From a virus (lineage: Duplodnaviria > Caudoviricetes): a DNA stretch of 64,000 bases. The translations under genes and the position numbers were made by a program. Below, one piece after another: positions 19,775-63,359 of this stretch (position 1 is its first letter; each line of letters opens with the position of its first letter). Below the pieces are notes generated by a model. That model did not search any database. It was not told the DNA's origin and saw only the letters and a program-made list of their open reading frames with translations. Location of the stretch: IMG/VR virus record IMGVR_UViG_3300001525_000506, positions 1 to 64,000 of that record, one strand, 5' to 3'.

Positions 19775-20172
19775 TGCGCCCTTTCCTCCAACTGGTCAAC
19801 AATATATTTACACTGGTCTTCGACGTATTCGAGCCCCCATACAACGCCGTTTTGCAAATAGGAAAAATCGTTTTCTCTTTGGTCTCTTGTTTCGGCATCA
19901 ATTAGACCGTATTCATAAGCCGTATCAAAGTCGCGGTCGTCGCCACAATGTCCGCAATCGAAACCAATGTAATATTTTGCCTTTTGTCCATAATCGTAAG
20001 GTAATGTGCCTGAAAAAGACAAACCGCCGTGACAATCGATATCGTAATCAATATAATCTTTATCCGTAGGCACCGACACATAGCCGTTTCGGAAACCCAT
20101 GTGAGTGAATACAATAATACAATCGTGACCTTTGTACTCGAATTGCTTTTCTACTATACCGAATTTATTCAT
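19771..20172 (-). CDS. conserved phage protein (GYV...HGGLSF...IGFDCGH family)
   Basis: Motifs in the translation. Confidence 0.75.
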   Translation of the reverse strand: MNKFGIVEKQFEYKGHDCIIVFTHMGFRNGYVSVPTDKDYIDYDIDCHGGLSFSGTLPYDYGQKAKYYIGFDCGHCGDDRDFDTAYEYGLIDAETRDQRENDFSYLQNGVVWGLEYVEDQCKYIVDQLEERAQ

Positions 20173-20521
20173 TGTCTTCTACCTCCTCCAAGTTTGGTTC
20201 TTGCAAAAATTCAAAGAATTGTGCCTGTATCTCATACGGTGCTATGTTTCCCCATTTTTCAGCATAAGACATCAATCGCGATGCAAAATTAACTAATGTT
20301 TCAGTTCGATATTGCTTAAGTTTCGCAATCTCGGTTTTATACTCGGAAACATCGCCGTAACCTGCCTTAATGAGTAACTCTGCACAATCTTCGGCGGTAT
20401 TAAAATTTTCCACATAATAAAGTGTCCCATCGGACATAACGCCTGTTTGTTTGACATTTTTACCAGCAGCGATTTTGATAATCTCTGCCATTCTTTTAAT
20501 TTGTTCTTGTTCAGTCTGCAT
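20165..20521 (-). CDS. hypothetical protein, GYGDVSEYK paralogue family
   Basis: Motif shared with 27536 and 39298. Confidence 0.75.
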   Translation of the reverse strand: MQTEQEQIKRMAEIIKIAAGKNVKQTGVMSDGTLYYVENFNTAEDCAELLIKAGYGDVSEYKTEIAKLKQYRTETLVNFASRLMSYAEKWGNIAPYEIQAQFFEFLQEPNLEEVEDNE

Positions 20522-20882
20522 GTTCTACCTCCTTGATGAGTTCGTCTATAAAGTATTTCACGTTATCTTTTGTGGCAAATGGGTTATATGGACTAATATC
20601 ATAAATGTGCTTTTTCACTTTATTCAGCACGTCGATTTGCGCTTGTTTTTTTGACTCTTCCAATTCAACAAGTTCAAAGTTGTTCTCGATAATGGTTTGG
20701 TCTTGCTTAATAATCTTTGTTTTTAGCCGCTCAATCTTGTTTTCATATTTACATATAAGAGCAAGAATATCTTTTAGCGTTTTTATCGGAATCCAATCTG
20801 CATGACCCTTATCCTCGTTTTTTGCATAGTTTATCTCGTATTCCAAAATTTGTTTAATATCTTTACTACGAATCTTTGCCAT
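20511..20882 (-). CDS. coiled-coil protein, KQAQIDVLNK...IDELIKEV family
   Basis: Motif and DNA identity shared with 39298-39744; promoter 20918-20947. Confidence 0.75.
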   Translation of the reverse strand: MAKIRSKDIKQILEYEINYAKNEDKGHADWIPIKTLKDILALICKYENKIERLKTKIIKQDQTIIENNFELVELEESKKQAQIDVLNKVKKHIYDISPYNPFATKDNVKYFIDELIKEVEHAD

Positions 20883-20985
20883 TTTACAATTACTCCTTTT
20901 GTTTGATTTGTACTCGTATTATAGCAGAATACTATATGCTGTGTCAAGAGGGTTTAATAAAGAAAAAGACCGAAATTTATTCGGT

Positions 20986-21297
20986 CTATATCCTTCCGAC
21001 GATTTCTCGTATCTTATCCACGATGTTCTCGTAATACTCCTTTTCCGATTTCAGCTTTTGTTCGTCTTTTAATTCGGAAATTTCTCGTTGCAGGGCTTGA
21101 ATTTGCGATTGCAGGTCTTTCTTTTCTTCTTCGTAGTCGGCTACGATATCGGCAACGTATCCGAATCCAGAATTGAACAGTTTATTCGCACAAAACTCAG
21201 CGAACCCTTCGAGAGAAAGATTGAAAAGTGCCGTTTCATAAATGATATTTTTCATAGACTCGATTTGTTTGCCATATCGCTCATTCGGTCTGTTCAT
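20986..21297 (-). CDS. hypothetical coiled-coil protein
   Basis: AGGAGG RBS; terminator near 20967-20987. Confidence 0.7.
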   Translation of the reverse strand: MNRPNERYGKQIESMKNIIYETALFNLSLEGFAEFCANKLFNSGFGYVADIVADYEEEKKDLQSQIQALQREISELKDEQKLKSEKEYYENIVDKIREIVGRI

Positions 21298-40062: not shown

Positions 40063-40257
40063 TTATTTTTGTTCGGTTTCGATTGGGATATCGGTTTCGA
40101 TATAAATCGGTGCTATCAGACCCCGTTCAAAGAACCAGTCATCAACCCAATCTTCCGCGACGTCGTAATCGTGTTTGTCCTTAGAATTGTGTATCTTTAC
40201 GCCTTTATCGCTCCACCTACGGATATGGTTTGTGTTGAATATTTCGCTTACTATCAT
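40063..40257 (-). CDS. small hypothetical protein
   Basis: Coupled to the LRR gene. Confidence 0.65.
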   Translation of the reverse strand: MIVSEIFNTNHIRRWSDKGVKIHNSKDKHDYDVAEDWVDDWFFERGLIAPIYIETDIPIETEQK

Positions 40258-41540
40258 TATGCTGTCACCTCACTTGCTTTGTATATATAATCCGCATACG
40301 TTGACCAATTCGCTGCTGCTATCCATTCGTCATAGAGCGAATCTGGGACGATGATTTTCGCAATGGCATTTATTCTATAAAAAGCATTGTTTCCCAGAGA
40401 AGGGATGCTCGTAAATTGAGAAAAATTATAATTCATTAGTGAATAACAATTATCAAATACACTGTACCCCAGTTTTGTAACACTATTTGGAATTATCACG
40501 CTTTCTAAAACACTACAACCGCTGAAGGCGCTATAACCAATTTCAGAGGGTGAACCCGAAAACGTAACGTTTGTCAAATTAGAACAAGAAGAAAACACCG
40601 AAGGACCAATAACATTACACGGAATTGTAACACTTGTAAGCGATTTACAATCACCAAAAGCACTACCATAAAGGGACTTTACGTTGTTGTGAATTACTAT
40701 TTCTGACAATGCGATACATTCCATAAAAGCATATGTTTGAATCTCTGTAATATTCTTGCTAATCGCAATGTTTGTCAACGCTCTACATTGCCAGAAAGCA
40801 TTAGTGCCGATGCGTGATATACCCATACCAAGACTCACACTTGTCAATCTATCACAACCTTGAAAAGCATAAAGGGAACCTGTTGTAACGCTGTTAGGGA
40901 TTATTATATGTGTTAATATACGACAAAAACTAAAAGTATGGCTACCAATATCCGTAATCTTATTTGATAATGTTACTGTTGCTAAAGACCAACTAAATCC
41001 AAAAGCATAAGCGCCAATTTCAGTTATATTTGCCAACCTTGCAGTAACACAATAATAATTAAGAGTATTTGTCGATTGCCCAAACAATCCGCTATCCTCG
41101 GACGTTGTCATCGTCGTCCCATCACATTTGATAGTATAATCCCCGTATGTAGTATATGTATGTGTCGTTTCTGTATCACTCGTGCCATCGCCCCAGTCTT
41201 TTGTGCCGTCCATATTAAGCGTCACTGATAATCCCGTAACCTTTGTCAATGTGATATCGAATTCGTTTTGACCGCTCGCCGTAGTGTAAACAGCACCGAC
41301 CATAACGTTATTGTCGGCGATAGTAATTTTATTATCTGTAATTGCTTGCGAGGCGCTCCATTCTTGGAACACCAGTCCTTCGTGAGACGGCGCAGCAGGC
41401 AAATCGAAACTGTCGCCGTTGTTGCCGCGTTTCTCGAGCAATACGGTTCCGTCATAATCTATAACTTTAACCCAAAAATCGCCTGTACCTACGCCATGGT
41501 CGATTTCGGTTTCGGGAATGAGTCGTACTATTTTCGCCAT
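40257..41540 (-). CDS. BspA-type leucine-rich-repeat protein (putative adhesin/RBP)
   Basis: About 8 repeats like ITEIGAYAF..C..LTSVTIPNSV. Confidence 0.9.
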   Translation of the reverse strand: MAKIVRLIPETEIDHGVGTGDFWVKVIDYDGTVLLEKRGNNGDSFDLPAAPSHEGLVFQEWSASQAITDNKITIADNNVMVGAVYTTASGQNEFDITLTKVTGLSVTLNMDGTKDWGDGTSDTETTHTYTTYGDYTIKCDGTTMTTSEDSGLFGQSTNTLNYYCVTARLANITEIGAYAFGFSWSLATVTLSNKITDIGSHTFSFCRILTHIIIPNSVTTGSLYAFQGCDRLTSVSLGMGISRIGTNAFWQCRALTNIAISKNITEIQTYAFMECIALSEIVIHNNVKSLYGSAFGDCKSLTSVTIPCNVIGPSVFSSCSNLTNVTFSGSPSEIGYSAFSGCSVLESVIIPNSVTKLGYSVFDNCYSLMNYNFSQFTSIPSLGNNAFYRINAIAKIIVPDSLYDEWIAAANWSTYADYIYKASEVTA

Positions 41541-43263: not shown

Positions 43264-45519
43264 TCACGCCATTATATGAGTCAACACGACATTAAACGTT
43301 TTTTCTTCTGTCGGTATCTTCTTCGCATAGATTCTTATACCAAAAATGTCTGCGCCCCAAGTTTCAACAAATGGCGCAAAATTACCGCTATATATATCAT
43401 CTACGCTTGTCGGGATTACTTCGGGAACATATGTATTTATATCATACACAATATTTTGCCTAATGCTGGCTGGACATATCAATTCAATGCTATAATTATA
43501 TCCATATTCTTGATATTTTGTATCTTGTGTCCAAGAAGATACTCCTGCCGTTACCGAAAACGAAACTATGTTTGTATCGATTGAGTTTTTCGCCGTTATA
43601 TCTATCGAGTCAGTCAAGGTTCCATCTGTTTTCGAAAACACAACGGTTGTCGTTGTGTTATCTTCGGTAATTTCCGTTTTTGTTACTCTTGCGGTGCTAA
43701 TACCGACGCCCTGTTCGCCTTGTTGTCCTTTTACATTTTTGAAAGCAAAAGCAAAACGGGGTGCCAATGTTGTTCCGCTTTTTGTCACATCTACTGACGG
43801 AGTACCGACATTATTATCAACGGTAGCAGATATAGTTATATTTGGTGTCGCACCTGTATCGCCTTGCCCGCCTTTTAATCCTTTGAATTTCAAATTAAAA
43901 GTAGGATTCTCCGCAGTTCCGCTTTTTGTCACATCTACTGACGGAGTACCTGTCGTATTCTCAACGAGTGCAGACATGTTTATATCTGGCGTATTTCCAA
44001 TTTCACCCTTTAGGTTGCTGAAAGCAAAATCAAATACTTTTCCACCAGGATAATCACCGTCATTACCAGTTGTAACTTTTACAGAAGGCGTCCCTACATT
44101 ATTGTCAACCGTTGCCGTGGCTCGCACGTGCGGAGTTGTGCCATTATCTCCCTTTTGACCTTTTAAGTTTTTGAAGGCAAGAGTAAATTTTGGGTAATCT
44201 ATAGAGGTACTTTTTGTTATTTCTACAGACGGGATGCCGACATTATCGTCGATGGTTGCCTCCATTGTTATAAACGGTGTTTTTCCCGTCTCGCCTTTTA
44301 TATTTTTGAACGCAAAGTCAAAAACAGGATTTGAAAGTGTACCACTTTTTGTGACTTCTGCAGAAGGCGTCCCTACATTATTATCGACAGTTGCGGATAT
44401 GCTTATATTTGGAGGAGCACCTCTTGTTGCGAGAACAGCATATACATACAAAGGTTCTTTTATATCAGACGCGCCTCCAATATGTCCGATAACCAAAAAA
44501 GTATCACCCGAAACAGAGTTTTCCCAAAAATATATTATATCATCATATATGGATACTTCTCTATTATACCATTGCGCTTGTCCAGACAAATCGTACCAAC
44601 CGTTAATTTGAGGGTCAGTGTCGAATACGAGTTTTGTTTGACAAATAACATATCCTAAACCTGTTTTTCCCGTATTACCCGTAAAACAAACCGCAGTCGT
44701 GCTGTCGAATTGCGCCGAAACGATTTCGTCATCGGATATATTAGTAACCGTTGCCATTACGACATAGTCTTTGGAAGTGTCCTCGAGTTCGTAAAAATAC
44801 AAGAAACTCTCGTCTTTTTTCGGCATTCTGTTGAAATCATCCGCTTTCATTTGCATGCTGAAAACAGTCCCGTCTTTTGTAAACGCGTCTTCGGATTCTT
44901 TTTGGTCTATTTTGTTGTAAACGAGTTGCGGTCTGAGATAATCGCCGAGAATATATTGTTGCAAAAGCCAGTTAAACTCAGAACTGTTCACGATACCGTC
45001 GGGCAACAGAACCGCATCCTCGACCGTAAACGCAACGCGTTCGAGAGAAAGCCAATTTGATATGACAGTAGAATCTGCAACGGCAACTTTTCCAGCCTGA
45101 ATCGTCATCAAGACCGTTCCGCCACGCTTAAACACATCGCCTTCGGAAACGTATTCGATAGTGGTTTTGTCTGCGTTTGCGAGTTCGGAAAGCCTTCCAC
45201 ACGGAACTTCTATTGCAAAGAACTCGTACTCTTTGCCGTATTGGAAGTGTTTAAGGTCACGGTTCCTGTCGAACGGAACGGTTTTTGTCACGAGATTATC
45301 ATCGCGGGTTACGGAATAATCTTCGTTCAAAACCTCGCCGTCTGCGAGTTGGAACCAGTATTTTAATGAATATATGTTTTTCGCGATTTTGCCCGAATCG
45401 GGTCTGCTGGCATCTTCGATAAAAACATTGACCGTATTCACGCCAACGTTGTATTGTCGCAATGCCTCATCGTTTATAGTTTCGAGCAATGTGCCCTTGC
45501 TGTCAAAATATAAATACAC
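43264..45519 (-). CDS. BppU-like baseplate/fibre protein with repeated ATVDNNVGTPSV...FxFKNxKGxxG units
   Basis: GTG start after AAGGAG; N-terminus paralogous to 56983; about six ~45-aa repeats; own promoter 45550-45578. Confidence 0.8.
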   Translation of the reverse strand: MYLYFDSKGTLLETINDEALRQYNVGVNTVNVFIEDASRPDSGKIAKNIYSLKYWFQLADGEVLNEDYSVTRDDNLVTKTVPFDRNRDLKHFQYGKEYEFFAIEVPCGRLSELANADKTTIEYVSEGDVFKRGGTVLMTIQAGKVAVADSTVISNWLSLERVAFTVEDAVLLPDGIVNSSEFNWLLQQYILGDYLRPQLVYNKIDQKESEDAFTKDGTVFSMQMKADDFNRMPKKDESFLYFYELEDTSKDYVVMATVTNISDDEIVSAQFDSTTAVCFTGNTGKTGLGYVICQTKLVFDTDPQINGWYDLSGQAQWYNREVSIYDDIIYFWENSVSGDTFLVIGHIGGASDIKEPLYVYAVLATRGAPPNISISATVDNNVGTPSAEVTKSGTLSNPVFDFAFKNIKGETGKTPFITMEATIDDNVGIPSVEITKSTSIDYPKFTLAFKNLKGQKGDNGTTPHVRATATVDNNVGTPSVKVTTGNDGDYPGGKVFDFAFSNLKGEIGNTPDINMSALVENTTGTPSVDVTKSGTAENPTFNLKFKGLKGGQGDTGATPNITISATVDNNVGTPSVDVTKSGTTLAPRFAFAFKNVKGQQGEQGVGISTARVTKTEITEDNTTTTVVFSKTDGTLTDSIDITAKNSIDTNIVSFSVTAGVSSWTQDTKYQEYGYNYSIELICPASIRQNIVYDINTYVPEVIPTSVDDIYSGNFAPFVETWGADIFGIRIYAKKIPTEEKTFNVVLTHIMA

Positions 45520-45590
45520 GGAAATTATCTCCTTTTTCGTTATATCATTAGTATAAAACAAAAAAATATGTTAGTCAAGATTTACAGAAC

Positions 45591-49530: not shown

Positions 49531-49672
49531 CTTTCTTAGACTCTTTTTCCTTGATAATCGCGATAGTCTTTTCGATAGCAGCGATATCGTCGGGATTTTT
49601 AAGTGTCTTCTTGAAATCTTCAAGTTGTGCTACAGTTTTGGACATAAACAATGAACCCAAGAACCAACCCAT
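49520..49672 (-). CDS. 50-aa peptide (MGWFLGSLFMSKTV...)
   Basis: AAGGAGG RBS; coupled to both neighbours; not in the ORF track. Confidence 0.7.
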   Translation of the reverse strand: MGWFLGSLFMSKTVAQLEDFKKTLKNPDDIAAIEKTIAIIKEKESKKDAK

Positions 49673-50241
49673 TATTCAACAGCCTCCTTTTTAGTTTTTC
49701 TTAAACACACGTACATATAGTACAGCGCTATCATAATATAATAATCTATTGCGAAAACGACTGTAAATATGACATTGTTCGCAAATATAGCCAATTCTTT
49801 TCCTCTTATATACAATGACGCAATTTGGAATAAAACGTTCAAAGCCAATCCCAAGAATCCCGTCCACCACTTCTTGCTCAAAACTGCGGGCAATACGATA
49901 AACATAACGCATTCGAGCGCAAAACCGATTTTGGGGAAGAAAAATTTTATGAACCAAACGGGTATATTTACGCTTTCGATTACAAGTAGTTGTTTCCAAC
50001 TCGGTTTCGGCGTAAGTCCCGATGACAAGATAATGAACGTGTTCGAAACTACTGATAATGCACCACCGACGATATAGGTTACATATATGCCGTCGGATGA
50101 TAGCCAATTACAAACGTCTATAAAACGTTGGTTCGAGATTGCGACTTCAAAAACTTTGCTACCGCATAACTTGAATATCATACATATTGCCAGCAAGCAC
50201 CAGCATATTATGATACAAGTCTTTATCGCTTTCTTATTCAT
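49672..50241 (-). CDS. polytopic membrane protein
   Basis: About 6 hydrophobic segments. Confidence 0.8.
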   Translation of the reverse strand: MNKKAIKTCIIICWCLLAICMIFKLCGSKVFEVAISNQRFIDVCNWLSSDGIYVTYIVGGALSVVSNTFIILSSGLTPKPSWKQLLVIESVNIPVWFIKFFFPKIGFALECVMFIVLPAVLSKKWWTGFLGLALNVLFQIASLYIRGKELAIFANNVIFTVVFAIDYYIMIALYYMYVCLRKTKKEAVE

Positions 50242-50318
50242 AATTTTTCCCTTTTGCGTATAAAAATCCCCTAATGAAAAGCATTCAACTTTATCATTAG
50301 GGGTTTAGGTTTGGTCTA

Positions 50319-51353
50319 TTATTTAGTTTGTTCTGCTTTCCAGGCTTGGAAGTTGCCTTTATATCCGTTTGCAATCGCAACTCTAAATGCTTGCTCTTCT
50401 TTCGCCTTTTCGACTTCTGCCGCCTTCTCAGCTTCTGCTTTTTGTTTCTCGGCAACATAATCGTCAAGAGAAACATCTACGGAGACGGAACCATCAAGCA
50501 TACCTGCGCGCCATTCGGATTCATATTTAGTCCTTGCGGCTTCTGCTTGAGCTTTTTCTTGTTCCAACTTTTCTTCCTCAGCTTGTTTCGCAGCCTCTTC
50601 CTCAGCCTCGAAATCTTGCTCCGCTTTCAAAATCGCGTCATAAGCCTTATCGAAACCGACTTTTTCAGCAATCTTTCTGCCTTCATATTGTTTTACATTC
50701 TCGAAGCCAGCGCCTTTTACGCCGAAAATGTTCGCGATAAACAACACGATACAGATAATAACGCCGATGCAAATATTTGCCCACAACGGGAGCTCTACGT
50801 GACCGACGAGCAAACCGCAAGTGGTTGCGCCGCCTGTTGCTACAGAAGCAATAAGACCAGAAACCATACCAACGATGGTCTTCGGGTTTCTCTTCAAAAA
50901 GTTCAAGAATTTGTTTTCCTTGATTTTTTCCTTACACATATCTATAAACCTCAATATTTTATTTATTTTATCGTTACCTTCTTTATAGGTAAGCTTTTTT
51001 ACTGCAGGTTTCAGTACAACTGTAATACCTTTCGCAAGTCCCTTTGCTGTGACTTTTACGGTTTGTGTTAGTACAACTACTAATAAAAACGATAAGGTTT
51101 TGGCGATAACGGTTGTTATTGTGTATGCTATTGCCTCTTCTATAAATTCTTCTATAATTTCGTATGTAAGAAGTAATCCGAACCCCTTACAAAACGTCTT
51201 TATCCAAGAACCAAATTTCCCCTTGTTTTCGTGAACCTTATTACAAGACGAGCGACACCATTTCGGGCACAGCGTCGGATGCGACTTCAACAACGTTTTG
51301 CTCATCTTGCGCCTCCGATGCCTCAACAACGGGCTCTTCAACCACATCGACAA
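50319..51353 (-). CDS. membrane protein with charged coiled-coil tail (start uncertain)
   Basis: TM segments then an E/K/A-rich tail; 5' end overlaps the upstream gene. Confidence 0.65.
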   Translation of the reverse strand: MSMWLKSPLLRHRRRKMSKTLLKSHPTLCPKWCRSSCNKVHENKGKFGSWIKTFCKGFGLLLTYEIIEEFIEEAIAYTITTVIAKTLSFLLVVVLTQTVKVTAKGLAKGITVVLKPAVKKLTYKEGNDKINKILRFIDMCKEKIKENKFLNFLKRNPKTIVGMVSGLIASVATGGATTCGLLVGHVELPLWANICIGVIICIVLFIANIFGVKGAGFENVKQYEGRKIAEKVGFDKAYDAILKAEQDFEAEEEAAKQAEEEKLEQEKAQAEAARTKYESEWRAGMLDGSVSVDVSLDDYVAEKQKAEAEKAAEVEKAKEEQAFRVAIANGYKGNFQAWKAEQTK

Positions 51354-51558
51354 TACCCAATCTCGATTTCAAATCATCACGATAGGCAATTACTTGCGCA
51401 ATATTTTCTTCGGTGTATTCCGCAACATTCGCTTGTGCTTGTTCGTAAGCAATCTTTGCTTCTTCAAGTTTTTCAACGGCTTTATCTTTGCCGTCAATCC
51501 ACTCGTTACACTCATCGAGTTTATCTCGCATAAGTTTTTCGATGTTGATAAGTTCCAT
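51241..51558 (-). CDS. acidic coiled-coil protein
   Basis: AGGAG RBS. Confidence 0.75.
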   Translation of the reverse strand: MELINIEKLMRDKLDECNEWIDGKDKAVEKLEEAKIAYEQAQANVAEYTEENIAQVIAYRDDLKSRLGIVDVVEEPVVEASEAQDEQNVVEVASDAVPEMVSLVL

Positions 51559-51580
51559 AATATATCTCCTAATGATATTT

Positions 51581-52207
51581 TCAAATAATTTTTAGTCCAC
51601 TCAATACGCCGAGTGTTATTGCCCCAGCCAGTATTAGACCGAATATAATCCACACTGTGACCTTAATTCTCGGTCGTGTGCGTTCGTCCGCTTTCTCGTA
51701 GCGACAAATGATACCGTCAATCCCGTCTATCAACATTCTAACAAATCCGCACGGTACTTTGATTACAAGTACGCCGATAAGATAGAACGGTGTCAAGAGC
51801 GGAACGACTATCATCTGCAACCACTTGGGCAAGTGAGAAACGATGTTGAACGTGTCAAAAAGCGTCTTGTTGCTGTCGAACTCGGACTTTTGCAACTCGG
51901 TTTCGCTGTCTTTCAAGTCCTTTTTCGTCTTGGTGATTTTCGCTTGTTGCTCACCAATGAGTTCGTCTTGCTTGCCTTTCGCGAGGGCTTGAACGGTTGC
52001 TTCATCTTCCACCGCTTTCGCCGTCGCCATTGCGTTCACGACATCTTTCGCTTGCTCTTCGTAGGATTGGTCTGTATTGAGTTTGAATTTGACATCTTTC
52101 AGCGAAACATCGGCAATCGGCTTGTCCGTGGTATCAGCCACTTGCATAGCCTTTTCTTGCGCATTTTCGCTTTCGATTTTGTCAAAGTCAACCATATCAA
52201 CCATCAT
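51581..52207 (-). CDS. coiled-coil protein with C-terminal TM segments
   Basis: Two hydrophobic C-terminal segments; promoter near 52225-52255. Confidence 0.75.
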   Translation of the reverse strand: MMVDMVDFDKIESENAQEKAMQVADTTDKPIADVSLKDVKFKLNTDQSYEEQAKDVVNAMATAKAVEDEATVQALAKGKQDELIGEQQAKITKTKKDLKDSETELQKSEFDSNKTLFDTFNIVSHLPKWLQMIVVPLLTPFYLIGVLVIKVPCGFVRMLIDGIDGIICRYEKADERTRPRIKVTVWIIFGLILAGAITLGVLSGLKII

Positions 52208-52284
52208 TCTACCTACTCATCTCGCACTATAAACCTTTTATCCGCGAATGTCAATACTTTATGACAATTTTGTTGGAAAAATTT

Positions 52285-52650
52285 TTACAGCAACTTGATT
52301 GTAGCCTCTTTGCTCGCAATCGCCGCCTCGTAATCGTTGATTTGTTTGCGCCAACTCTTGCGTTGCTCTTTAATCGGCGCATAGTCAACTTCAAGCATTT
52401 CGCCCTCCGCAAACTTAATCGCTTGGTAGTCGGTTTTGTTGAGGTTGCGTTTCAAGTCCGAGATTGTGCGCACCAACTCATTGATTTCGTCACGAATTGC
52501 AGCGATATTCAAATTCCTGTTGCGTTGCGAAGTCGCCTCGTCCGCTTTCGCTTGGAAATATGCGCTGTCCTCTTCCGTCATAATGTGCGCATTGTCTGGG
52601 AGAATGTACTTTTGTTTGCTACCATCTTCTTTATCTACTACATATATCAT
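52285..52650 (-). CDS. tail-fibre-associated/assembly-like small protein
   Basis: LNKTDYQAIKFAEG...RKSWRKQIN motif typical of genes ending fibre operons. Confidence 0.6.
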   Translation of the reverse strand: MIYVVDKEDGSKQKYILPDNAHIMTEEDSAYFQAKADEATSQRNRNLNIAAIRDEINELVRTISDLKRNLNKTDYQAIKFAEGEMLEVDYAPIKEQRKSWRKQINDYEAAIASKEATIKLL

Positions 52651-52663
52651 AGATTATACCTCG

Positions 52664-53767
52664 TTAGCCAATCTGTGTTCTTATGTATTCTGCCATAAGA
52701 ATAGCATTCGCTGCTTGAACTGTTATAGGGTCATACAAGACTGTGATTGTGACCTGATTGGTATCTGAATTTTGTACGGTACTATAAGCATTATGACAAA
52801 AACAAATAGTTGGGTCGTTTGACATATCGCTCGAAACCAAAGAATAACCTGTATATGATGCCAACGGAGCACCATTTTTTTCATAGGCAATGAAATCACT
52901 TGAAGAAAAGTTTTTCCATTTACTCAAAAAACTATCAATATCGAAACTATCTTTTATTACATAAGTTCCGCAAGTCATTGCGCCCCTAATTGTCCCACTA
53001 CGGACTTCTTGCCCAGTTATTTTACCGTTGAACTCGGCAACGAGATAACCAATTGCTTTGGCATAGCTTCTTCCTGAATATATTAAATTCCAAGCACCAG
53101 CTCGCCCGTTCTGTGGCGTGGTTTTTTGAGAAGATAGCGCACTGTCTTGTAAATTGTTTAGATTTGTATACGAACCGACATCGGTAGTCGTCCCGCAAAT
53201 AACAGTGAACAAATCGTTTAGCACGCGACAAACTATTGATGTAGCGTAACATTGTGTTGCGGGTATTCCAACGACTGTATCCTCTTTTAGAAATGCGCTT
53301 TCGTTTATGCCAAAACAAAACTGCGGGACATTATTGTCGAACGCTACTTGCGCAAGACCAATTACTAATTTTGCGCCATAACTCGTATGTGAGCCAAGTG
53401 CTGCGTATGAAGTATATGCGCCAGTACAATCAAATACATATTCGACCCCTGAATCGTTCCACGGAATATCGCTCCAATATTTGTCGCTGGTAGGTGCAAC
53501 TTGTGTAAACGCCACATAAATGCCGTTAATAACGAAACGTTTATGGTCGCTGTCATAAGACACTTCTTTATCCCACACTCCATAAACAGTGTCGTACTTT
53601 AACAAATAAGCCAATTGGTCAGGGTCGCTAACATCATTTACTGCTGCAACTGTTATCGTGTAGCCGCCAATAGAAGAAAAATCGTTAAATTTACTATCAA
53701 AAAGCATTCTCAACAATCGTCTGCCGAGAACACCAAGACCGTTTATACCAACTTTCAATTCTGCCAA
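52664..53767 (-). CDS. gap: GAPDH (class I) homologue lacking catalytic Cys and His
   Basis: GINGLGVLGR, AVND, YLLKYDTVYG, IPW..SGVEYVFDCTG, GRAGAWNLI, AKAIG...GKITG, LVSSD; ASCTT replaced by PATQC, HAYT by GSYT; TTG start after AAGGAGG. Confidence 0.88.
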   Translation of the reverse strand: MAELKVGINGLGVLGRRLLRMLFDSKFNDFSSIGGYTITVAAVNDVSDPDQLAYLLKYDTVYGVWDKEVSYDSDHKRFVINGIYVAFTQVAPTSDKYWSDIPWNDSGVEYVFDCTGAYTSYAALGSHTSYGAKLVIGLAQVAFDNNVPQFCFGINESAFLKEDTVVGIPATQCYATSIVCRVLNDLFTVICGTTTDVGSYTNLNNLQDSALSSQKTTPQNGRAGAWNLIYSGRSYAKAIGYLVAEFNGKITGQEVRSGTIRGAMTCGTYVIKDSFDIDSFLSKWKNFSSSDFIAYEKNGAPLASYTGYSLVSSDMSNDPTICFCHNAYSTVQNSDTNQVTITVLYDPITVQAANAILMAEYIRTQIG

Positions 53768-53779
53768 AACTATTCCTCC

Positions 53780-55399
53780 TTAATATATATCATTGAAAAA
53801 ACTCGTTGTCTGTGTACCACCACTAATCGTGCCCAAGTCAATAAGACCGCTGCTGTCAGCCGTATATGTCGTTCCATTCACCTTGACTTGCAAATTCACC
53901 CATTTCGGGGCTAACGAACCGCCTTGCGACATCGCAAATTGACTTGATGAACCGCTGTTACCGCTGAATTGTAAAGACTTTGAAACGTTTATTCCACTAC
54001 TGAATGTTTTGAAACCAGAAAAAGTTTGCGCCTCACCATCCGACATTGTTTGTTGCTTTACCCAAGGACTCCAACTGGCTGGAGGAACTACTGAATAACG
54101 GACATAAGTAGTGAACTCAACAGTGCTATAAGGTCCGATTTTATACAATGTCTGTTTAGCATAATTATTTTTACTCTTTTCAATTTCAAGTATAAACGGC
54201 ATAGTATCCGTAATATCACTCGGTCTATGTGTACAAGTATTACCGCTTGCTGCACGATACCAGCCAACTTCCATAATTGAGTTCAAATTTTCGTTTGTGA
54301 GTTCAGTGTACCCGTGTTTCGAGTTGTCCGTCTCACTGGGAATTGTTGGCTTATCAGCCAGGTCGTTATAAGAACCCGAAGTCGCAACAGCTGCGAGGTC
54401 TGATTTTTCTGCATAATCGACATTTTCTGCTGATGTTACACGACCTTGTGAATTCACATGAACGTTATTATATTTACCTTCAGTTACTCCTGTATTAGCT
54501 AAATTAACTGTAAGACCAGTCCCCTTACCGCTACTTCGTTGTGTGAGTGAAAACGAGCCAGGTGGAAAATAAATCATCTTATATTCAGACCCGTCGTAAT
54601 CAAATTCTCTTCGTACTGAATTGTTTTCAGTTCCAGATACATTTAATACATTTGCAACTTTACTTGCGGTCGGAGTTCCCAAATCCACCAATCCAGTATC
54701 GTCTGGCGATTTCGTTTCGTCTCCTATCTTAACCTGTGTTACAGTGCCCTTATTTGTTGTGTATCCACTATCGTTCGTGAGTTCGGACACTTTGGTCGGC
54801 ACGTCCGAGTACAGAGCCAAGTCATTGCTGTTGTACTTAGGTCTTGTTTCTTTACCACGCAAACGAGCATTATACGAGGAACTACCCATCGTCAGGTCGG
54901 TAGCGTTCATAAAGCCGAATATTGTGCTTGTGCCGCTGTCGGTTATTTGACCGTTCTCACCGTTGTTAAGAGCAATTTTAGACGCATTTGCGCCGTCACC
55001 ACCCGTTACTTTAAGTGGGCTCGTGAGAGTACCGCCCGCAAGTCCGTCAATAGATGTTACCGCACTCGGGACGTCCGATGCCAATGCTAAATCTTTATAC
55101 GTAGTGCCATCGGTTGTGTATTGAGGGCGTGCCAAACTACCACGCAACGTAATTGGGAACGTGGTCTGTCCGAAAAACACTCGCTCGGCATTGAAATGAT
55201 ACATCGCATTGCCTTTCGAGTTTTCAAGCGTGTCCATTTTGGGAGTACCTGTAAATGTCCAAACACCCGAAATCGTTTCCGCATCTGCTTTCTTGGCATA
55301 AACCGAAAGGTCGGGTGGATTGGATAACACATTATATGGTATCCTTACCTCCTCTTTTTCGGTGGCACTTGTTTTTTTATATATCTTATATGTTGCCAT
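53780..55399 (-). CDS. tail fibre protein
   Basis: TGVTEGKYNNVHVNSQGRVT fibre repeat; internal RGxxxRP..DLALxSDVP repeat. Confidence 0.8.
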   Translation of the reverse strand: MATYKIYKKTSATEKEEVRIPYNVLSNPPDLSVYAKKADAETISGVWTFTGTPKMDTLENSKGNAMYHFNAERVFFGQTTFPITLRGSLARPQYTTDGTTYKDLALASDVPSAVTSIDGLAGGTLTSPLKVTGGDGANASKIALNNGENGQITDSGTSTIFGFMNATDLTMGSSSYNARLRGKETRPKYNSNDLALYSDVPTKVSELTNDSGYTTNKGTVTQVKIGDETKSPDDTGLVDLGTPTASKVANVLNVSGTENNSVRREFDYDGSEYKMIYFPPGSFSLTQRSSGKGTGLTVNLANTGVTEGKYNNVHVNSQGRVTSAENVDYAEKSDLAAVATSGSYNDLADKPTIPSETDNSKHGYTELTNENLNSIMEVGWYRAASGNTCTHRPSDITDTMPFILEIEKSKNNYAKQTLYKIGPYSTVEFTTYVRYSVVPPASWSPWVKQQTMSDGEAQTFSGFKTFSSGINVSKSLQFSGNSGSSSQFAMSQGGSLAPKWVNLQVKVNGTTYTADSSGLIDLGTISGGTQTTSFFNDIY

Positions 55400-55420: not shown

Positions 55421-56968
55421 TTATGATTGCAACTCCATAAACAAGCCACCAATCATAAGACTATCACTGGGCTTTGTTTGACCTTTTGTTCCCCATTCAA
55501 TGGATTGTCCACCAGCAGTTACACGACCTTTTGCATTTACATTTACGGCGCTGTATTGACCTGCAACAACACCCGTCGGACGAAGATGGATATTTGTTCC
55601 AGTATATTCCGAACCGTCATAAACGTTGTCCGATACGGCATTGCCATAGAAGTCATCTTTATCGAAAGACAAAACCTTCTTTTCCGAGCCGTCATAAGCA
55701 TTGTGAGTTATCTCACTGCTGTTTGTCTCGTCAGGTGTCGTAATCAAGAACTTGTTCGCGACCTTATCCGATGACGCAGCGTGTTTTGCCTCTTTTACGG
55801 TCGTTGTGTTGCCGTCAAAGATATCGCTTATATTTCGGTCGCCGATTTTTTCGGTAACTTTTTTAGCCGTATCCGCAGATGTTGCGTGGTCTGCCTCAGC
55901 TGCCTTGCCTACTGCTGTCGTGCCATCTTTGATGTTTGAAATCTCGGTCGCATTCGCATTCGCTTTCGAAAGCGCATTATCTGCAGTCTCTTTTACTTCG
56001 TTGATTGCACCGACAATCGTCTTAGCGTCGGTTTCAAGCTTCTCATCTTCTTTCTTTTGATAATCGTCCAAATCCGTTGCCAAATCGTCTTTGGTTACGT
56101 AATTCGTCAAATCGACCTTTTCCGTTTCCAACTTCGAGAAAGTGAAGTAGCCAACGGTAAGACCATAAGTAGTATCGAGCGCATCAACAATTGCTTGGTC
56201 AGTTGTATAAGTATAAAGTGTGCTAACAGCATTAACACGAGATACCCACAAATCTGGCACACCGAGTGTCTTGATATACACATTATCACCGACACCCATT
56301 GCAGTTGAACCCAAAGCATCAGTTGCGGTTACAAACGCCTGATAGTTATCATACGTGAATGTTCTCGCTTTTCCTGCAATAGCCTCTTGCAACTCTTGCT
56401 TGGTCGCATAGCCTTTATCTTCTGCCTCAAGAACACGACCTTTGTTATCGACCTTAATGCCCTGATAAGTGCCAGGTGTAACACCAGTCTTTTTCAATGA
56501 ATAAGACACCGATTGCGTAGAAGAGGACGTATTGCCCTCCATAACAAAGTCATCGCCGTCCATCGACAATTGCGTATCTTTTGAACCGTCATACGGAACA
56601 GAAGTTATACCGCCGCCGTCAAGTGTGCCAGATAAGCGCAAGTCGTGAGTAACCTTGCCTGCCTCTTTAACGACTTTATCTTTATCGGCGGTATTGTCAA
56701 CGTTACCGAGACCAACTGCAGCCTTGGACAATTTCGCAATCTTATCTTCGACAATTGACTCGCCGTTTACGTCTTGTACATCATCTACTTTGCCTGCACT
56801 TGCGACGCCTTCAGCCAATTCTTGAAGAGCGCCTTCAACATTTGTGGAAGTAAACTTGTCGCCAGCATCAGCAAGCGTTACTTGCTCAGCCGAAGTTTCG
56901 GGAAGGACTTGTATTAGAGTACCGTCAGCGTCCACAACGCGATGTATTCTTCGTTTTTCAGTTGCCAT
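55421..56968 (-). CDS. tail fibre protein
   Basis: KAAVGLGNVDNTAD, TGVTPGTY..VDNKGRV, TGVVAGQY..VNAKGRVT, YDGS repeats. Confidence 0.85.
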   Translation of the reverse strand: MATEKRRIHRVVDADGTLIQVLPETSAEQVTLADAGDKFTSTNVEGALQELAEGVASAGKVDDVQDVNGESIVEDKIAKLSKAAVGLGNVDNTADKDKVVKEAGKVTHDLRLSGTLDGGGITSVPYDGSKDTQLSMDGDDFVMEGNTSSSTQSVSYSLKKTGVTPGTYQGIKVDNKGRVLEAEDKGYATKQELQEAIAGKARTFTYDNYQAFVTATDALGSTAMGVGDNVYIKTLGVPDLWVSRVNAVSTLYTYTTDQAIVDALDTTYGLTVGYFTFSKLETEKVDLTNYVTKDDLATDLDDYQKKEDEKLETDAKTIVGAINEVKETADNALSKANANATEISNIKDGTTAVGKAAEADHATSADTAKKVTEKIGDRNISDIFDGNTTTVKEAKHAASSDKVANKFLITTPDETNSSEITHNAYDGSEKKVLSFDKDDFYGNAVSDNVYDGSEYTGTNIHLRPTGVVAGQYSAVNVNAKGRVTAGGQSIEWGTKGQTKPSDSLMIGGLFMELQS

Positions 56969-58715: not shown

Positions 58716-61700
58716 TTAAGTCGTCGTTTCGATTTGTGTTCTAACCGAAGAAGATATAGAAACTTCGTTTACTTCGAAATGGAAATCAACATAACCATCT
58801 TGCAAGTTTACTGCTATGTTTACGGGGATTGCGAAAGATTTTGTACTTTTCGCCCCCATTTCTTCATCGAAATCTTTTTTAGCTGCGCCATTTTTATCAA
58901 AGATATTACCTTTGACCGATACCGCAATAGGATTCGGGTTAAAAACGGTTAAGTCCACGTATTGCCTTGAAGCGCCTATTTCGGAACTTGCACTATAATC
59001 GGTCGGTGTTGCAATCGAAAGTTTCAATTGTACAGCTTTTTGTTCGGGCGCTACCGTCAATTCGTATGAGTTTTTCTTTATAACTTGGTTGCCTATAACC
59101 CACGATTCGAAGATTTCACTTTCACATTGCAAAGGCACTTGCTCTCCCACATAACGACTTATACTATTGGTCTCGAATACGTTATCGACTAAACTATCGA
59201 CATTGAACTTAACCATATTCGGACTCGTTGCTATCGGGTCAAAAGTCTGATATGTCGGTGGTTCATATTCTCCATTCTCGTCAACGCAATTGTGTACGAT
59301 ACCGACTTGTCTGCCTACGCTATCATAAACGCGTTCGTCTCTGTTTGTCGTCTTCGTGATATAGATGTCGATATAACCGCGGTCGAAATCTTCTTTGGTT
59401 ACATTGACACCAAACACGAAATGATAGCCAGAACGGTCAGGCGTGCTCTTGTAATAAGACGCGCTATTGGTATAATCTCGTTGATATGCCGAGTCGAAAT
59501 CGAAATACCAGTATCTTATCGATTGCGTTCCAGACGGAACTTGGTCTAATGCAACACGTAACTTCTTCTCGGGGACGCCTTTGTCCCTGTCGTTCACTAT
59601 AGAGAATACTTCGGAAGGCTTTATCGTCGCGAACTTTTTGCCATCGTCATTATAGTTATAAGGCAAAATCTTTGACGCGATAGTTTTGTTTATAGCTTCT
59701 TCGCTAAATTCCAAAAACATATTACGCTCTACAAGCATATTTTTCTCATAGTTTATATATGATTGTCCATCGGCACCGCTTGTAGATAATCCAGTTGGAC
59801 CAGATGACATACTTGGTGAGACCTCATACTTATAATCAAAAACTTCATCATAGAGACCACGCGCTATTGGATGGAACTCAATCTTATTTAATTGCGTGAT
59901 ACTTTGACCACTATTCTTTGTCCATCGAGTTATTTCTCCGTCGCCCTTTAATATCAAATGCTTTTTATCAATTCCCGCTTCTGATACATACTCCCAATAA
60001 ATACTTTGTGCGTTAAAGTTACATTGCATCCACGCGCTTTCATACCCAGTAGTTTTTACTGAAATATCTAATGTAAATTTTTGAGCGTTTTCCGCTCCTC
60101 CCTTATTTGATAATAAATTTTTAATATATCTATAACTTGTATCGGTTTGAATTTGAATTGTTTTGCCTGTGCCTTGACTCGTTTCTATAAGAGAATATGA
60201 GAAAAAAACAGGCTCCCCCATTGATGTTCCGCTATAATTTTGACTATAACCATTTATTCGCGGTTTTGTATCCATAGATACATCGATTTTTGCATTTCTA
60301 TTCGTCAAAACTAAATCGCTTAATTTTAAGAGATATTGACCGATAACAATATTTTTATCAGATGCAATTGGCTCAACCTGAAATGTCATATCTATGCGTT
60401 CTTTATTATCTTTGTGTATGTTTTTTTCAGAAGACGACATACTGAGCAATCGTTGTTCTCCTGGCAGTGATAATGTTTTTACAGGAAGATTTTTGCAATA
60501 CGAATAGAATTGGTCCAGTGTCGCTCTACCCGAATCATTATCTAACACCAAATTAGGTATAGAGACATCTGTATGGCTTAATTGATAATCCATATCTTTT
60601 ATTGCCCCAGTTTCGCGGTCATCTACAATATCATACCATTGTTGTTCCGAACCGACATAATATTGGTCATCTTCAGAAGGATGCAAAGCCAAAATTTTCC
60701 AATCAGAACTCCAAGTATCAATAAAATTACCTCCTGAAATATTATCAGGCATTGCAACATTAAAACACAAACTGTTGCCGCTCGTAAATGTCTGCTCATC
60801 TACAAAAAACGGGTTCTTATCTGCGTGCGTTTTTATTATCGCATTATTTATGTCGCATATTCTGCTCGAAGGCAAAAATGCGCTAAACAATGTTTCTACG
60901 CCTATTTCTGTTATCTTATCTGCCTCTTCTTCTTCAAACCAATCGACAAAATATGGCATTATGCTTATTTCGTCTATTATTTGATAAAGAATTATAAGAT
61001 ACTTACCGTTTCTATCTTCTTGACCGCCTTCGCCCGTTATTGTAATAGGTAAAAAATAATGTTTACCTATTGTAAGAGAATAAGCATCAAGTATGCCACC
61101 TGCTAAAAAAATCTTTCCTTTGAAAGCATCCCATACTGATGACTGAGAAGATATTGTTTGCGAACATTTTATGGTTTCAAAGTTATATTTGTGCCCCTTT
61201 ATCTCAAAAAATGTTTTTTCGTCTTTATGTTTTTTGTTTTTAGACAAAAGTATAAGCGTTTTTTTATTTTCAGCCCGATTCACAGATTCGCCATAAGACA
61301 TAAGCTGATATGTCCTATATTTTGCATAAACACTTGTATAAAAATTCTTCAAGACATAATCTTGTATCCCCGCATATGACACGGAAATATAATTATCGAA
61401 TATCGAATATTCTCTGCGATAAATGATTACGTCATCATCTGCACCAATAGTACCCGTATTCCCAAGCCTTAATATATTCGCAACAGAATAATTATTGCCA
61501 TCGAGACGACCTTTTAACAAATGTGTCTTATTTGCGAATCTGTTTAATTTCTCTTTTTGAGATAACCCATCTTTTTCGAGTAGTGTGAGAGAAGAAGAAG
61601 AATTATCATTAGAAATAATATTATCTCTGCCCTCATCTCTTGAGTGTACTATTGCCCCATCATAAAATCCCTCATATTCTATTTCAAAAAACACCGTTTT

Positions 61701-63359
61701 TAGACGTTGGGTATTAGATATCCCTTCAAAGGGATATAATTTTTCAAAATTTGATACCCAATTATTTGGTATAAAAGTATTTACAAGAACATAATTTTTT
61801 GCCGATATATTTTGTTCTTTATAAGTTGCTCCATTATACAAATAAATCATTCCGTGGGTAAAATCGTCTGTTGTAGTTCCCGTATGTCGATAATAATTAT
61901 TCTCAATGGGCGTAAAATCGCTTTCAGAGAGGTCTTGTTCTTTTATATTAAGCTCATTTTCTTTTTCCCTTAGAAAATCTTGCATTTGAGCGAATTCTGT
62001 TATTTCGTCTATCGCATAATTCGCGCATACTTTTTTTAAGATATTTTCAATATAAGTAGCTGTTACGTTATAGACCGAAAGACCATCACCACCCTCTACT
62101 ATTTGGTCAACACGAGAACCCCACCCTTCTATTGTGTTTCCACCTATAGAATATGATACTGTACTAATCTTAAATTTTGCCAAATCTTCAATAGAGGTAG
62201 GTATTTCTTTTAATTTTTTCCAATCCTGACTAAGCAAATTCCACTCGGTTTTTTCCTTTACCAATGGTAAAATATCATATTTTGACAATGTATAAACAGG
62301 TGTAACTTCTGCGTTTTCTAAACGTATAACTTCGCAAGAGAGATAAAAACACATATTGAATTTTTTTACTTTATACAATTTATGTGTTGTTTCCAAACGC
62401 ATATTTTCAAGTATCATCAAAGCACTATCTTTGCTTCTAAACCCAAAATATTCTATAAAATTACACGTGCCATCTTGAGAAAGGGCATCAGAATATTGTC
62501 TTCTTGTACCATCACAAAAATCAGAGCTACCCATTTGCCCGACGATACGCGAAATCATACCTTCTTTTTGCAAGGTAGCAAGGTCGTATGTTTTTGTCCC
62601 CCAAGGGGTTTCTGTTCTTTCCGAAATCGCCTTTGCATATATCACGTTATCTTTGACATACGGTATCATATCCAAAGTAATCATAAGTGAAGATAAAACA
62701 TCTCTCAAATTCGGATTCGATAACGAGAAATCTTGAGAATAAAAATCACTAAAAATGGATTTGAGTTCTGGTGCAACTGTGTATTTTTGCACATATTCCC
62801 AAGAGTTAATATCTACGTTTTTATCATCATCGTGGATGATTTTGTATTTTTTATACTTTGGAGAATACAAGTTTACGAAACGCACCAAATACGTATATAT
62901 GTCAATCTTCTTCGAAACCACCAACGGTTGCGTAACTGAAATATTCGGGAGCTGAACGACTTCAAGCCCCTTAGTTTCGCTAAAAAGTTCAAGCGAATAT
63001 GAATATATGTCTTCACTAAGATTAATAATATCTTCCGTGAATTTATCAACAAGCAAATGACGATAAAACGGGATTCTTACACCCGTTTCTTTGTCAATTT
63101 CATCTCCGTCGTGAAGCGTACCGCCGCGTCTCCAAAGTCCGATATGCGAGCCAAACCATTTTGTCTCATCTTCGCCTTCGGGCGCGCTTTCGTAAATATA
63201 CACATCATCATATGGTTTTAAGCCTACGATTTGCCCCTTGATATGAGACAATCTAACTACGCCGCTATCAAGCGTTTCGTTATATTCTTCGGTAAAAGTC
63301 ACACCTTGCGCGACTTCGTGTATATATTCTTTATCGTGTATTCTAACAGTTAAGTTCAT
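58716..63359 (-). CDS. large virion (tail tip/hub) protein
   Basis: 1547 aa in the structural module; AT-rich central part. Confidence 0.65.
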   Translation of the reverse strand: MNLTVRIHDKEYIHEVAQGVTFTEEYNETLDSGVVRLSHIKGQIVGLKPYDDVYIYESAPEGEDETKWFGSHIGLWRRGGTLHDGDEIDKETGVRIPFYRHLLVDKFTEDIINLSEDIYSYSLELFSETKGLEVVQLPNISVTQPLVVSKKIDIYTYLVRFVNLYSPKYKKYKIIHDDDKNVDINSWEYVQKYTVAPELKSIFSDFYSQDFSLSNPNLRDVLSSLMITLDMIPYVKDNVIYAKAISERTETPWGTKTYDLATLQKEGMISRIVGQMGSSDFCDGTRRQYSDALSQDGTCNFIEYFGFRSKDSALMILENMRLETTHKLYKVKKFNMCFYLSCEVIRLENAEVTPVYTLSKYDILPLVKEKTEWNLLSQDWKKLKEIPTSIEDLAKFKISTVSYSIGGNTIEGWGSRVDQIVEGGDGLSVYNVTATYIENILKKVCANYAIDEITEFAQMQDFLREKENELNIKEQDLSESDFTPIENNYYRHTGTTTDDFTHGMIYLYNGATYKEQNISAKNYVLVNTFIPNNWVSNFEKLYPFEGISNTQRLKTVFFEIEYEGFYDGAIVHSRDEGRDNIISNDNSSSSLTLLEKDGLSQKEKLNRFANKTHLLKGRLDGNNYSVANILRLGNTGTIGADDDVIIYRREYSIFDNYISVSYAGIQDYVLKNFYTSVYAKYRTYQLMSYGESVNRAENKKTLILLSKNKKHKDEKTFFEIKGHKYNFETIKCSQTISSQSSVWDAFKGKIFLAGGILDAYSLTIGKHYFLPITITGEGGQEDRNGKYLIILYQIIDEISIMPYFVDWFEEEEADKITEIGVETLFSAFLPSSRICDINNAIIKTHADKNPFFVDEQTFTSGNSLCFNVAMPDNISGGNFIDTWSSDWKILALHPSEDDQYYVGSEQQWYDIVDDRETGAIKDMDYQLSHTDVSIPNLVLDNDSGRATLDQFYSYCKNLPVKTLSLPGEQRLLSMSSSEKNIHKDNKERIDMTFQVEPIASDKNIVIGQYLLKLSDLVLTNRNAKIDVSMDTKPRINGYSQNYSGTSMGEPVFFSYSLIETSQGTGKTIQIQTDTSYRYIKNLLSNKGGAENAQKFTLDISVKTTGYESAWMQCNFNAQSIYWEYVSEAGIDKKHLILKGDGEITRWTKNSGQSITQLNKIEFHPIARGLYDEVFDYKYEVSPSMSSGPTGLSTSGADGQSYINYEKNMLVERNMFLEFSEEAINKTIASKILPYNYNDDGKKFATIKPSEVFSIVNDRDKGVPEKKLRVALDQVPSGTQSIRYWYFDFDSAYQRDYTNSASYYKSTPDRSGYHFVFGVNVTKEDFDRGYIDIYITKTTNRDERVYDSVGRQVGIVHNCVDENGEYEPPTYQTFDPIATSPNMVKFNVDSLVDNVFETNSISRYVGEQVPLQCESEIFESWVIGNQVIKKNSYELTVAPEQKAVQLKLSIATPTDYSASSEIGASRQYVDLTVFNPNPIAVSVKGNIFDKNGAAKKDFDEEMGAKSTKSFAIPVNIAVNLQDGYVDFHFEVNEVSISSSVRTQIETTT

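Follow-up and report, generated by a model that had tools for sequence, protein, structure and literature searches.

We describe a homologue of glyceraldehyde-3-phosphate dehydrogenase (GAPDH), in all probability catalytically dead, that is encoded among the tail-fibre genes of a virus of the Caudoviricetes, IMG/VR record IMGVR_UViG_3300001525_000506. The DNA analysed, here called the window, comprises bases 1-64000 of this 75,551-base record, which is rated 100% complete. The gene directly follows a fibre-like gene whose product ends in a short conserved tail, it is itself followed by a gene for a small coiled-coil protein, and phages with closely similar flanking DNA can carry deeply diverged alleles of it. 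Taken together, these observations point, tentatively, to a non-enzymatic adhesin or specificity module that would be tied to the C-terminal tail of the fibre and would carry a variable host-binding surface.

A GAPDH fold without the catalytic residues

The open reading frame (ORF) for the protein, P0001, lies on the minus strand (Table 1) and is real, and several lines of comparison agree with the initial annotation that its product is a GAPDH homologue. Both GAPDH domains are recognised by Pfam (Gp_dh_N at 6.2e-22, Gp_dh_C at 3.1e-10), phmmer matches GAPDHs of the PDB at 2e-31 with about 30% identity, and an AlphaFold2 (AF2) model built on 37 relatives, with a predicted local distance difference test score (pLDDT) of 88.8, matches solved GAPDHs in Foldseek with an E value of about 1e-34 and template modelling (TM) scores of 0.8-0.9. 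This confirms a full-length two-domain GAPDH homologue, with a Rossmann and a catalytic domain, that has the same fold as type I GAPDH (GapA; S. aureus GAPDH1, PDB 3LVF/3K73; TIGR01534) at 25-32% identity. The protein scores 145.3 bits on the TIGR01534 type I GAPDH equivalog model, for which the cut-off is 367.2 bits. Pfam and PHROG yield GAPDH domains and a single unnamed PHROG of 'unknown function', and no homology to gp38 or Caudo_TAP was found in either. The TTG start codon (53767-53765) is credible because GGAGG stands 7 nucleotides (nt) upstream of it and because relatives start at the same point of the alignment (MA..KVGINGxG).

Residues were counted by alignment in 67 family members and 47 canonical enzymes, with canonical positions given in what we take to be the B. 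stearothermophilus numbering, mapped via the alignments. All four motif readings of the initial annotation are upheld: the Cys of SCTTN is replaced by Thr171 and the catalytic His by Gly198, and GVLGR and LYDPI stand in place of GRIGR and WYDNE, respectively. At the Cys149 column, the family has Gly in 56 members, Ala in five, Thr in one and a gap in five; at the His176 column it has Cys in 38, Val in nine, Gly in seven and Thr in six, and His in none (0/67). All canonical enzymes have Cys and His at these columns (47/47 each). The cysteine that had been left to be placed against GapA proved to be Cys173 (53249-53251, minus), which is offset by two residues past the Cys149 column, is absent from the closest relatives and is not conserved. 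The Cys149, Thr150 and His176 columns vary between subfamilies (G/A/T, D/Q and C/V/G/T, respectively), the Asn313 column is Ala or Pro in 58/67, the Ser119 column is Cys in 60/67, and the Thr208-Gly209 loop of type I GAPDH is gone. These replacements strongly support the view that the protein is dead for GAPDH chemistry.

A number of features are common to type I GAPDH and the phage protein, namely the glycine loop GxGxxG, Asp32, Thr179 (65/67 family members), the second S-loop Arg (67/67) and the RVP Arg (61/67). The first Arg of the canonical invariant S-loop RxxR pair is Gln in 66/67. The glycine loop is missing from the first of the two GAPDH-like copies at one related locus (L027), a copy of 346 amino acids (aa), and from the first copy at another (L004) as called, both of which retain their position in the gene order described below. 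Because the loop has been lost in these two copies, the cofactor seems dispensable, which argues for a binding or structural role over a redox role.

The most conserved stretch of the whole protein is the S-loop motif (Table 1), where N202, L203, N204, N205, L206, D208, R222, A223, A225, W226, N227 and I229 are invariant in 67/67, and which is unlike canonical S-loops. This region is also the sole segment of the monomer AF2 model with a pLDDT below 50.

A single clade maintained by selection

In a large protein collection, the family comprises about 70 clusters at the 90% identity level, all of them unnamed, 33-59% identical to the query and situated on metagenomic contigs of phage size; canonical GAPDHs begin at about 32% identity. 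A hidden Markov model (HMM) scan of 1.84 billion representatives found further short members, and the best 144 HMM matches include about 30 representatives (50% level) that have the family Trp but not the dyad. In a maximum-likelihood tree, the Cys/His-less sequences form one clade (72/72, support 0.999, stem 0.64), which holds no catalytic sequence and in which branch lengths are about fivefold those among the sister enzymes. Pairwise ratios of nonsynonymous to synonymous substitution (dN/dS) are 0.18-0.22, with dS saturated, and 31 columns are invariant in an alignment of 37 sequences. Given one dead clade, a dN/dS of about 0.2 and an S-loop with an invariant motif of its own, the dyad appears to have been lost once, long ago, and the family to have been maintained since then by selection for a non-GAPDH function. 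The initial annotation had proposed a pseudoenzyme in place of a metabolic auxiliary gene, and this proposal is strongly supported by the loss of the Cys and the His (0/67 members have either), the score below the equivalog cut-off, the single clade and the purifying selection; the decay that it had considered is not what dN/dS indicates. A phage-borne active gap, as an auxiliary metabolic gene, is contradicted by the lost catalytic residues and by the separation of the clade from the canonical enzymes.

Other altered dyads occur among the best 144 profile matches. P0227, P0247, P0248, P0252 and P0278 have Met for the Cys and Arg for the His, while P0234, P0241, P0250, P0272 and P0346 retain the Cys and have Arg for the His. 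These proteins lack the family Trp and may be other non-canonical GAPDH paralogue groups, or alignment slips.

Searches of phage and genome collections recovered little else. A tblastn search of 50,697 phage records gave canonical GAPDHs only, and those inspected were bacterial gap-pgk-tpi fragments in UNVERIFIED records; L020 (MT835613.1) and L021 (MT835916.1), named 'UNVERIFIED: Bacteriophage sp.' and from human faeces, carry ordinary bacterial gap-pgk-tpi operons. Such records indicate that GAPDH matches in phage collections can be host contamination. No GAPDH fold was found by Foldseek among the BFVD viral structure models, scanning IMG/VR with a peptide pattern yielded no relatives, and the DNA pattern ...NDIY-TAA-GGAGG gave one chance match in IMG/VR, in a 65-aa ORF. 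Species-representative genomes held only canonical Saccharibacteria GAPDHs, and a scan of JGI metagenomes gave one true family member (L009). A literature search found no paper linking a GAPDH-like protein to phage tails. All relatives are uncultured, several have record names that refer to pig-gut metagenomes, and the canonical sequences and Atlas models closest to the family belong to Bacillota; as a lead, the host may belong to the Bacillota, perhaps the Lachnospiraceae.

A fixed cassette behind fibre-like genes

Homologues in other phage tail modules, which the initial annotation had suggested looking for, were found at 13 further non-redundant loci, 10 via the GAPDH-like protein and three via the 121-aa protein encoded after it, so that the window and these make 14 loci. 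The gene order recurs as a cassette: a fibre-like gene with a product ending in ...NDIY, a GGAGG, one or two GAPDH-like genes, and a gene for a coiled-coil protein of about 121 aa. In 14/14 loci, the gene directly ahead of the first GAPDH-like gene ends in (Y/F)N(D/E/N)IY-stop, and all of the junctions read (11/11) have the stop-GGAGG arrangement. A six-frame scan found one ORF ending in N[DEN]IY per locus, the sole exception being a second one in L004. This second ORF, which ends in ...VYNDIY, lies at 19852-21039, at the edge of that locus and beyond both of its GAPDH-like genes. In the junctions read, the Ile codon of the terminus is ATA, ATC or ATT and the Asn codon AAT or AAC; because these codons vary, the constraint is on the peptide and not on the DNA.

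The ...NDIY proteins are otherwise unrelated and range from 114 to 891 aa. Some are collagen-like proteins of 790-891 aa with tail-fibre PHROG matches at 1e-94, one is a BspA-type leucine-rich repeat (LRR) protein, and some have PTKVSxLTNDxGY repeats. The last 35 or so residues are conserved in most of them, and in the most distant only the last five or six. Two GAPDH-like genes are present in L004, L005 and L027, the last of which consists of two units, the first GAPDH-like copy being detectable by profile comparison only (hhalign 96%). Since large structural genes come after the cassette in L001, L004 and L005, it is embedded in the fibre cluster and not appended to it. The idea that the gene is part of the tail-fibre apparatus, which had been put forward from the window, is both borne out and sharpened by this fixed association with an ...NDIY fibre and by the gene-sized exchange described below.

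The third gene of the cassette follows the GAPDH-like gene in 13 of the 14 loci, and a search that started from the 121-aa family itself found a GAPDH-like gene directly upstream in 6/6 further places. Nothing in Pfam, NCBIfam or the PDB matched the 121-aa protein, and in PHROG it has only weak matches, to unnamed families. It may resemble tail-fibre assembly proteins, the lead being a feature similarity of 0.87 to the PF16778/PF11192 clusters. In Roseburia phage Shimadzu (L031; LR596903.1, 5679-9192), the 73-aa product of orf25 matches the C-terminal half of the 121-aa protein at 45% identity. This orf comes after the gene for the tail fibre and a diversity-generating retroelement (Avd, reverse transcriptase), and ahead of an endolysin gene, in the same slot as the cassette, which is filled there by a different means of fibre variation.

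Two siphovirus-like loci, L002 (16937-21101) and L018 (11214-16907), carry a thymidine hypermodification set, comprising thymidylate synthase, the 5-hydroxymethyldeoxyuridine (5-hmdU) DNA kinase HMUDK_HMUD1 and TAGT. The set lies a few kb downstream of the tail/GAPDH-like module and directly adjoins it in L018.

Gene-sized replacement of alleles

How the three cassette proteins vary relative to one another was compared in 45 locus pairs, which are non-independent and for which the figures are descriptive. The identity of the fibre C-terminus goes with that of the 121-aa protein (rho 0.60), and shows no such relation to that of the GAPDH-like protein (rho 0.00), which is less conserved than either of the other two in 44 of the 45 pairs.

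The clearest case is the pair L003/L009, where the fibre termini are 100%, the 121-aa proteins 71% and the GAPDH-like proteins 33% identical, and the fibre genes 88%. At the DNA level, this homology (88%) breaks 8 nt past the start codon of the GAPDH-like gene and returns 1 nt ahead of its stop. The same breaks at the borders of the GAPDH-like ORF are seen in L003/L019 and L002/L018. Phages of the L003/L019 type encode an integrase and are thus temperate. The flanks are thus 85-90% identical between phages whose GAPDH-like alleles are 33-45% identical, and the nearest allele to that of L003 is the one in L001 (65%), though the flanks of L001 differ. The gene is replaced, as a unit, by deeply diverged alleles. 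Such gene-sized replacement is the pattern of host-range determinants, and also of counter-defence genes.

Genome context in the window

Almost all of the genes in the window are on the minus strand, and they include those for portal, large terminase, primase, helicase and a C5 methylase; the major head and scaffold proteins are encoded just outside it. After the head genes, the minus-strand order is a gene for a 1547-aa protein, genes for small proteins, one of which has a weak head-tail adaptor match, and then the 515-aa, 539-aa, GAPDH-like and 121-aa genes (Table 1). The 515-aa and 539-aa proteins have two segments in common. The 539-aa protein is the sole ORF product of the window with an N[DEN]IY terminus, and over its last 35 aa it shares 80-83% identity with the C-termini of the otherwise unrelated upstream proteins of L001 and L002. 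Residues 468-514 of the 1547-aa protein (58716-63359, minus), a stretch of 47 aa, recur at 62% identity in the 180-aa protein of L004 that ends in ...NDIY, so that a mini fibre and a giant tail protein have this short module in common.

The tight coupling through ribosome-binding sites that the initial annotation had noted is seen on both flanks, with the upstream stop-GGAGG on one side and, on the other, GAGG and the ATG of the next gene within 13 nt of the GAPDH-like stop. It had also seen no promoter of the gene's own, and we likewise found no promoter-like site on inspecting the region ahead of it, the only strong one lying past the 121-aa gene. Because this promoter-like site and the genes for membrane proteins come only after the 121-aa gene, the GAPDH-like gene is the penultimate gene of a late structural unit.

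Table 1. Features in and around the GAPDH-like gene (positions in the window)
Feature	Positions	Strand	Basis or remark
Promoter-like site TTGACA-17-TATAGT, at the end of the fibre/GAPDH-like/121-aa unit	52226..52254	minus	Consensus match only
121-aa coiled-coil partner gene (MIYVVDKEDGSKQKY...)	52285..52650	minus	After the GAPDH-like gene in 13/14 loci
GAPDH-like pseudoenzyme gene, protein P0001	52664..53767	minus	367 aa, TTG start; Pfam PF00044 and PF02800, AF2 and Foldseek
S-loop region, residues 200-229, YTNLNNL(Q/E)DS ... PQxGRAGAWN(I/L)I	53081..53170	minus	Family-invariant
Codon of Gly198 (catalytic His176 column)	53174..53176	minus	Alignment
Codon of Thr171 (catalytic Cys149 column)	53255..53257	minus	Alignments
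Conserved Asp45 (Asp32 position)	53633-53635	minus	Asp in 64/67
Dinucleotide-binding glycine loop GxGxxG, residues 10-15	53723..53740	minus	Glycines retained in 64-65/67
GGAGG ribosome-binding site	53775..53779	minus	Directly 3' of the upstream gene's TAA (53782-53780)
539-aa tail-fibre-like protein, two PTKVSELTNDSGY... repeats, ends ...FFNDIY-stop	53780..55399	minus	
515-aa second fibre-like protein	55421..56968	minus	Weak PHROG tail-fibre match, phrog_7389, 2e-5

Past the promoter-like site, at 49672-52207 (minus), are three genes for proteins of 208, 344 and 189 aa with two to five hydrophobic segments each. Two of these membrane-type proteins have weak DUF2207_C matches. The group is a possible lysis or exclusion module, and no endolysin could be recognised near 49672-52207. 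A second surface-type group lies 7-12 kb downstream (40257-41540 and 43264-45561, both minus). One of its proteins is of the BspA type and matches LRR_5 at 2.8e-51; the other, of 765 aa, has matches to minor-tail PHROGs. LRR_5 recurs close to the L027 cassette and in the L005 protein that ends in ...NDIY.

Discussion

Our data document a GAPDH-like family that lacks the catalytic dyad, sits in a fixed cassette behind fibre-like genes, and is exchanged one gene at a time. The reading that we favour, and that we hold to be a serious possibility short of an even chance, is that the protein is a non-enzymatic adhesin or specificity module tied to the C-terminal tail of the fibre. In this model, the invariant S-loop and the remnant of the anion-binding cleft would engage a conserved partner, and the best candidate for this partner is the C-terminal tail of the fibre, ...(Y/F)NDIY-COOH, since nothing else beside the GAPDH-like gene is universally conserved. 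The variable remaining surface would supply host specificity, phages would change this specificity by swapping the GAPDH-like ORF alone, and the 121-aa protein would act as a helper or chaperone of the unit. Fibre-tail binding, presence in the virion and receptor binding are steps that we infer from the arrangement and variation of the genes.

There is a possible precedent for such docking in CP12 and in the extension of GapB, where a short acidic C-terminal tail enters the active-site cleft of GAPDH and touches arginines and the cofactor (PMC6800369, PMC4436894). The product of the cassette neighbour might be comparable in that it always ends in a short conserved tail, ...(Y/F)NDIY, and docking would then resemble the entry of those tails into the GAPDH cleft. 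The likeness is one of analogy, since CP12 regulates an active enzyme in phototrophs, whereas here the enzyme is dead and the candidate partner is a phage fibre. A bolder version of the model, that a glycolytic enzyme was captured once by gut phages and made into an exchangeable receptor-binding head that plugs onto ...YNDIY-COOH in the manner of CP12, is an attractive speculation that we nevertheless regard as somewhat improbable. When the GAPDH-like protein and the final 50 residues of the fibre were modelled as a complex, the score was 0.01, which speaks neither for nor against binding.

Several points weigh against the adhesin model. The old phosphate site is only partly retained, the first S-loop Arg having been lost. 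The invariant S-loop motif could equally serve self-assembly or binding of the 121-aa protein. GAPDH assembles as a tetramer and fibres as trimers, which makes it hard to see in what ratio the two would combine. The distal end of a tail operon also houses morons and other accessory genes, and fast allele exchange is typical of anti-defence and exclusion genes as well. In addition, the family was not found in the collection of cultured phages, and a search for proteins in which a fibre is fused to a GAPDH-like part turned up nothing but canonical fusions (GAPDH-PGK or multi-GAPDH) and one high-GC ORF that had been mis-called.

The alternative that survives best, although we consider it unlikely, is a fibre-assembly factor that acts outside the virion. 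Together with the 121-aa protein, it would aid the folding, trimerisation or attachment of the ...NDIY fibre and then be released, as for T4 gp57A/gp38 and lambda Tfa. Its place directly after the fibre gene, with translational coupling, and the conserved fibre terminus are both in keeping with this role. The order of a fibre gene followed by a coupled downstream gene is also that of T2/T6-type gp38, lambda Tfa/Mu U and Caudo_TAP, and in gp38 and Tfa the fibre C-terminus is similarly conserved and the downstream gene the most variable and exchanged. The cassette differs from these systems in its glycolytic-enzyme fold, which has no kinship to theirs in sequence or structure, and in its third conserved small gene. 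Moreover, a conserved client would predict a conserved helper, yet the GAPDH-like protein does not co-vary with the fibre terminus, as the 121-aa protein does, and its ORF is replaced alone between near-identical phages. The 121-aa protein is the better chaperone candidate, because it co-varies with the fibre terminus and because its C-terminal half recurs in the tail-fibre/retroelement module of Shimadzu.

It is improbable, in our estimate, that the protein is an enzyme with a new chemistry, binding nicotinamide adenine dinucleotide or its phosphate (NAD(P)) in the Rossmann fold and acting, on the tail or in the cytoplasm, on a host surface polymer or on the tyrosine tail of the fibre. The retention of GxGxxG and of the Asp32 position in 64-65/67 members, together with that of Thr179, the second S-loop Arg and the RVP Arg, would fit such an activity. 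No replacement nucleophile is conserved, however, with the Cys149, Thr150 and His176 columns differing by subfamily and the shifted Cys173 missing from the nearest relatives; the glycine loop itself is gone in some cassette members, and Asn313 and Ser119, at the nicotinamide end, have been replaced.

An intracellular effector has an equally low standing. The initial annotation had offered a dominant-negative poison of host GAPDH tetramers, and a binder of nucleotides or ADP-ribose derivatives directed against host defence would be a variant of the same idea. A GAPDH fold with its dinucleotide loop retained, and an allele turnover as fast as is typical of counter-defence genes, could both be expected of such an effector. 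The poison is disfavoured, since it accounts neither for the obligatory ...NDIY neighbour, nor for a late-operon gene coupled to a fibre gene, nor for divergence to 33% between near-identical phages, for which a conserved target gives no cause. The S-loop, which lies at the core of the tetramer, is invariant in the family yet unlike canonical S-loops, and the glycine loop is missing in some members.

The surface GAPDHs of bacteria bind mucin, plasminogen and fibronectin, and one could imagine, by analogy, a virion adhesin for animal mucus or tissue proteins in place of a bacterial receptor. Related loci do come from pig-gut metagenomes, and the solved surface GAPDH of group A streptococci (SDH, PDB 6ITE), which is among the structural matches, shows the same fold at work as an extracellular binder in a Gram-positive 'moonlighting' role. 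The surface GAPDHs are active housekeeping enzymes, however, while the phage family consists of separate dead paralogues, and, with nothing specific in its favour, we find this proposal very improbable: allelic diversity and exchange better fit changing bacterial receptors. Finally, a functionless, decaying remnant of a captured host gap gene, which the lost catalytic residues alone might suggest, is scarcely credible and already contradicted by an intact frame in about 70 clusters, one ancient clade, a dN/dS of about 0.2 and 31 invariant columns.

A GAPDH fold is not known to have been reported in an accessory role at the fibre tip, although fibre-tip cassettes and pseudoenzymes are themselves known. 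From type I GAPDH, the phage family is set apart as a separate, fast-evolving clade with its own S-loop and with a tail-fibre context in place of gap-pgk-tpi. Even if the protein should turn out to be a fibre helper, the family is sizeable, with about 70 clusters at the 90% and about 30 at the 50% identity level, and annotation as now practised would wrongly name its members 'glyceraldehyde-3-phosphate dehydrogenase' and count them among phage metabolic genes. If the adhesin model is true, the family would represent a new class of phage host-recognition module, derived from a highly conserved metabolic enzyme, with a five-residue fibre terminus as the plug to a socket, and one conserved fibre could be re-targeted by the swap of a single ORF. 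This would inform the origins of pseudoenzymes, would offer a natural modular scaffold for fibre re-targeting studies in laboratory phage-host pairs, and would aid the prediction of host range for uncultured gut phages.

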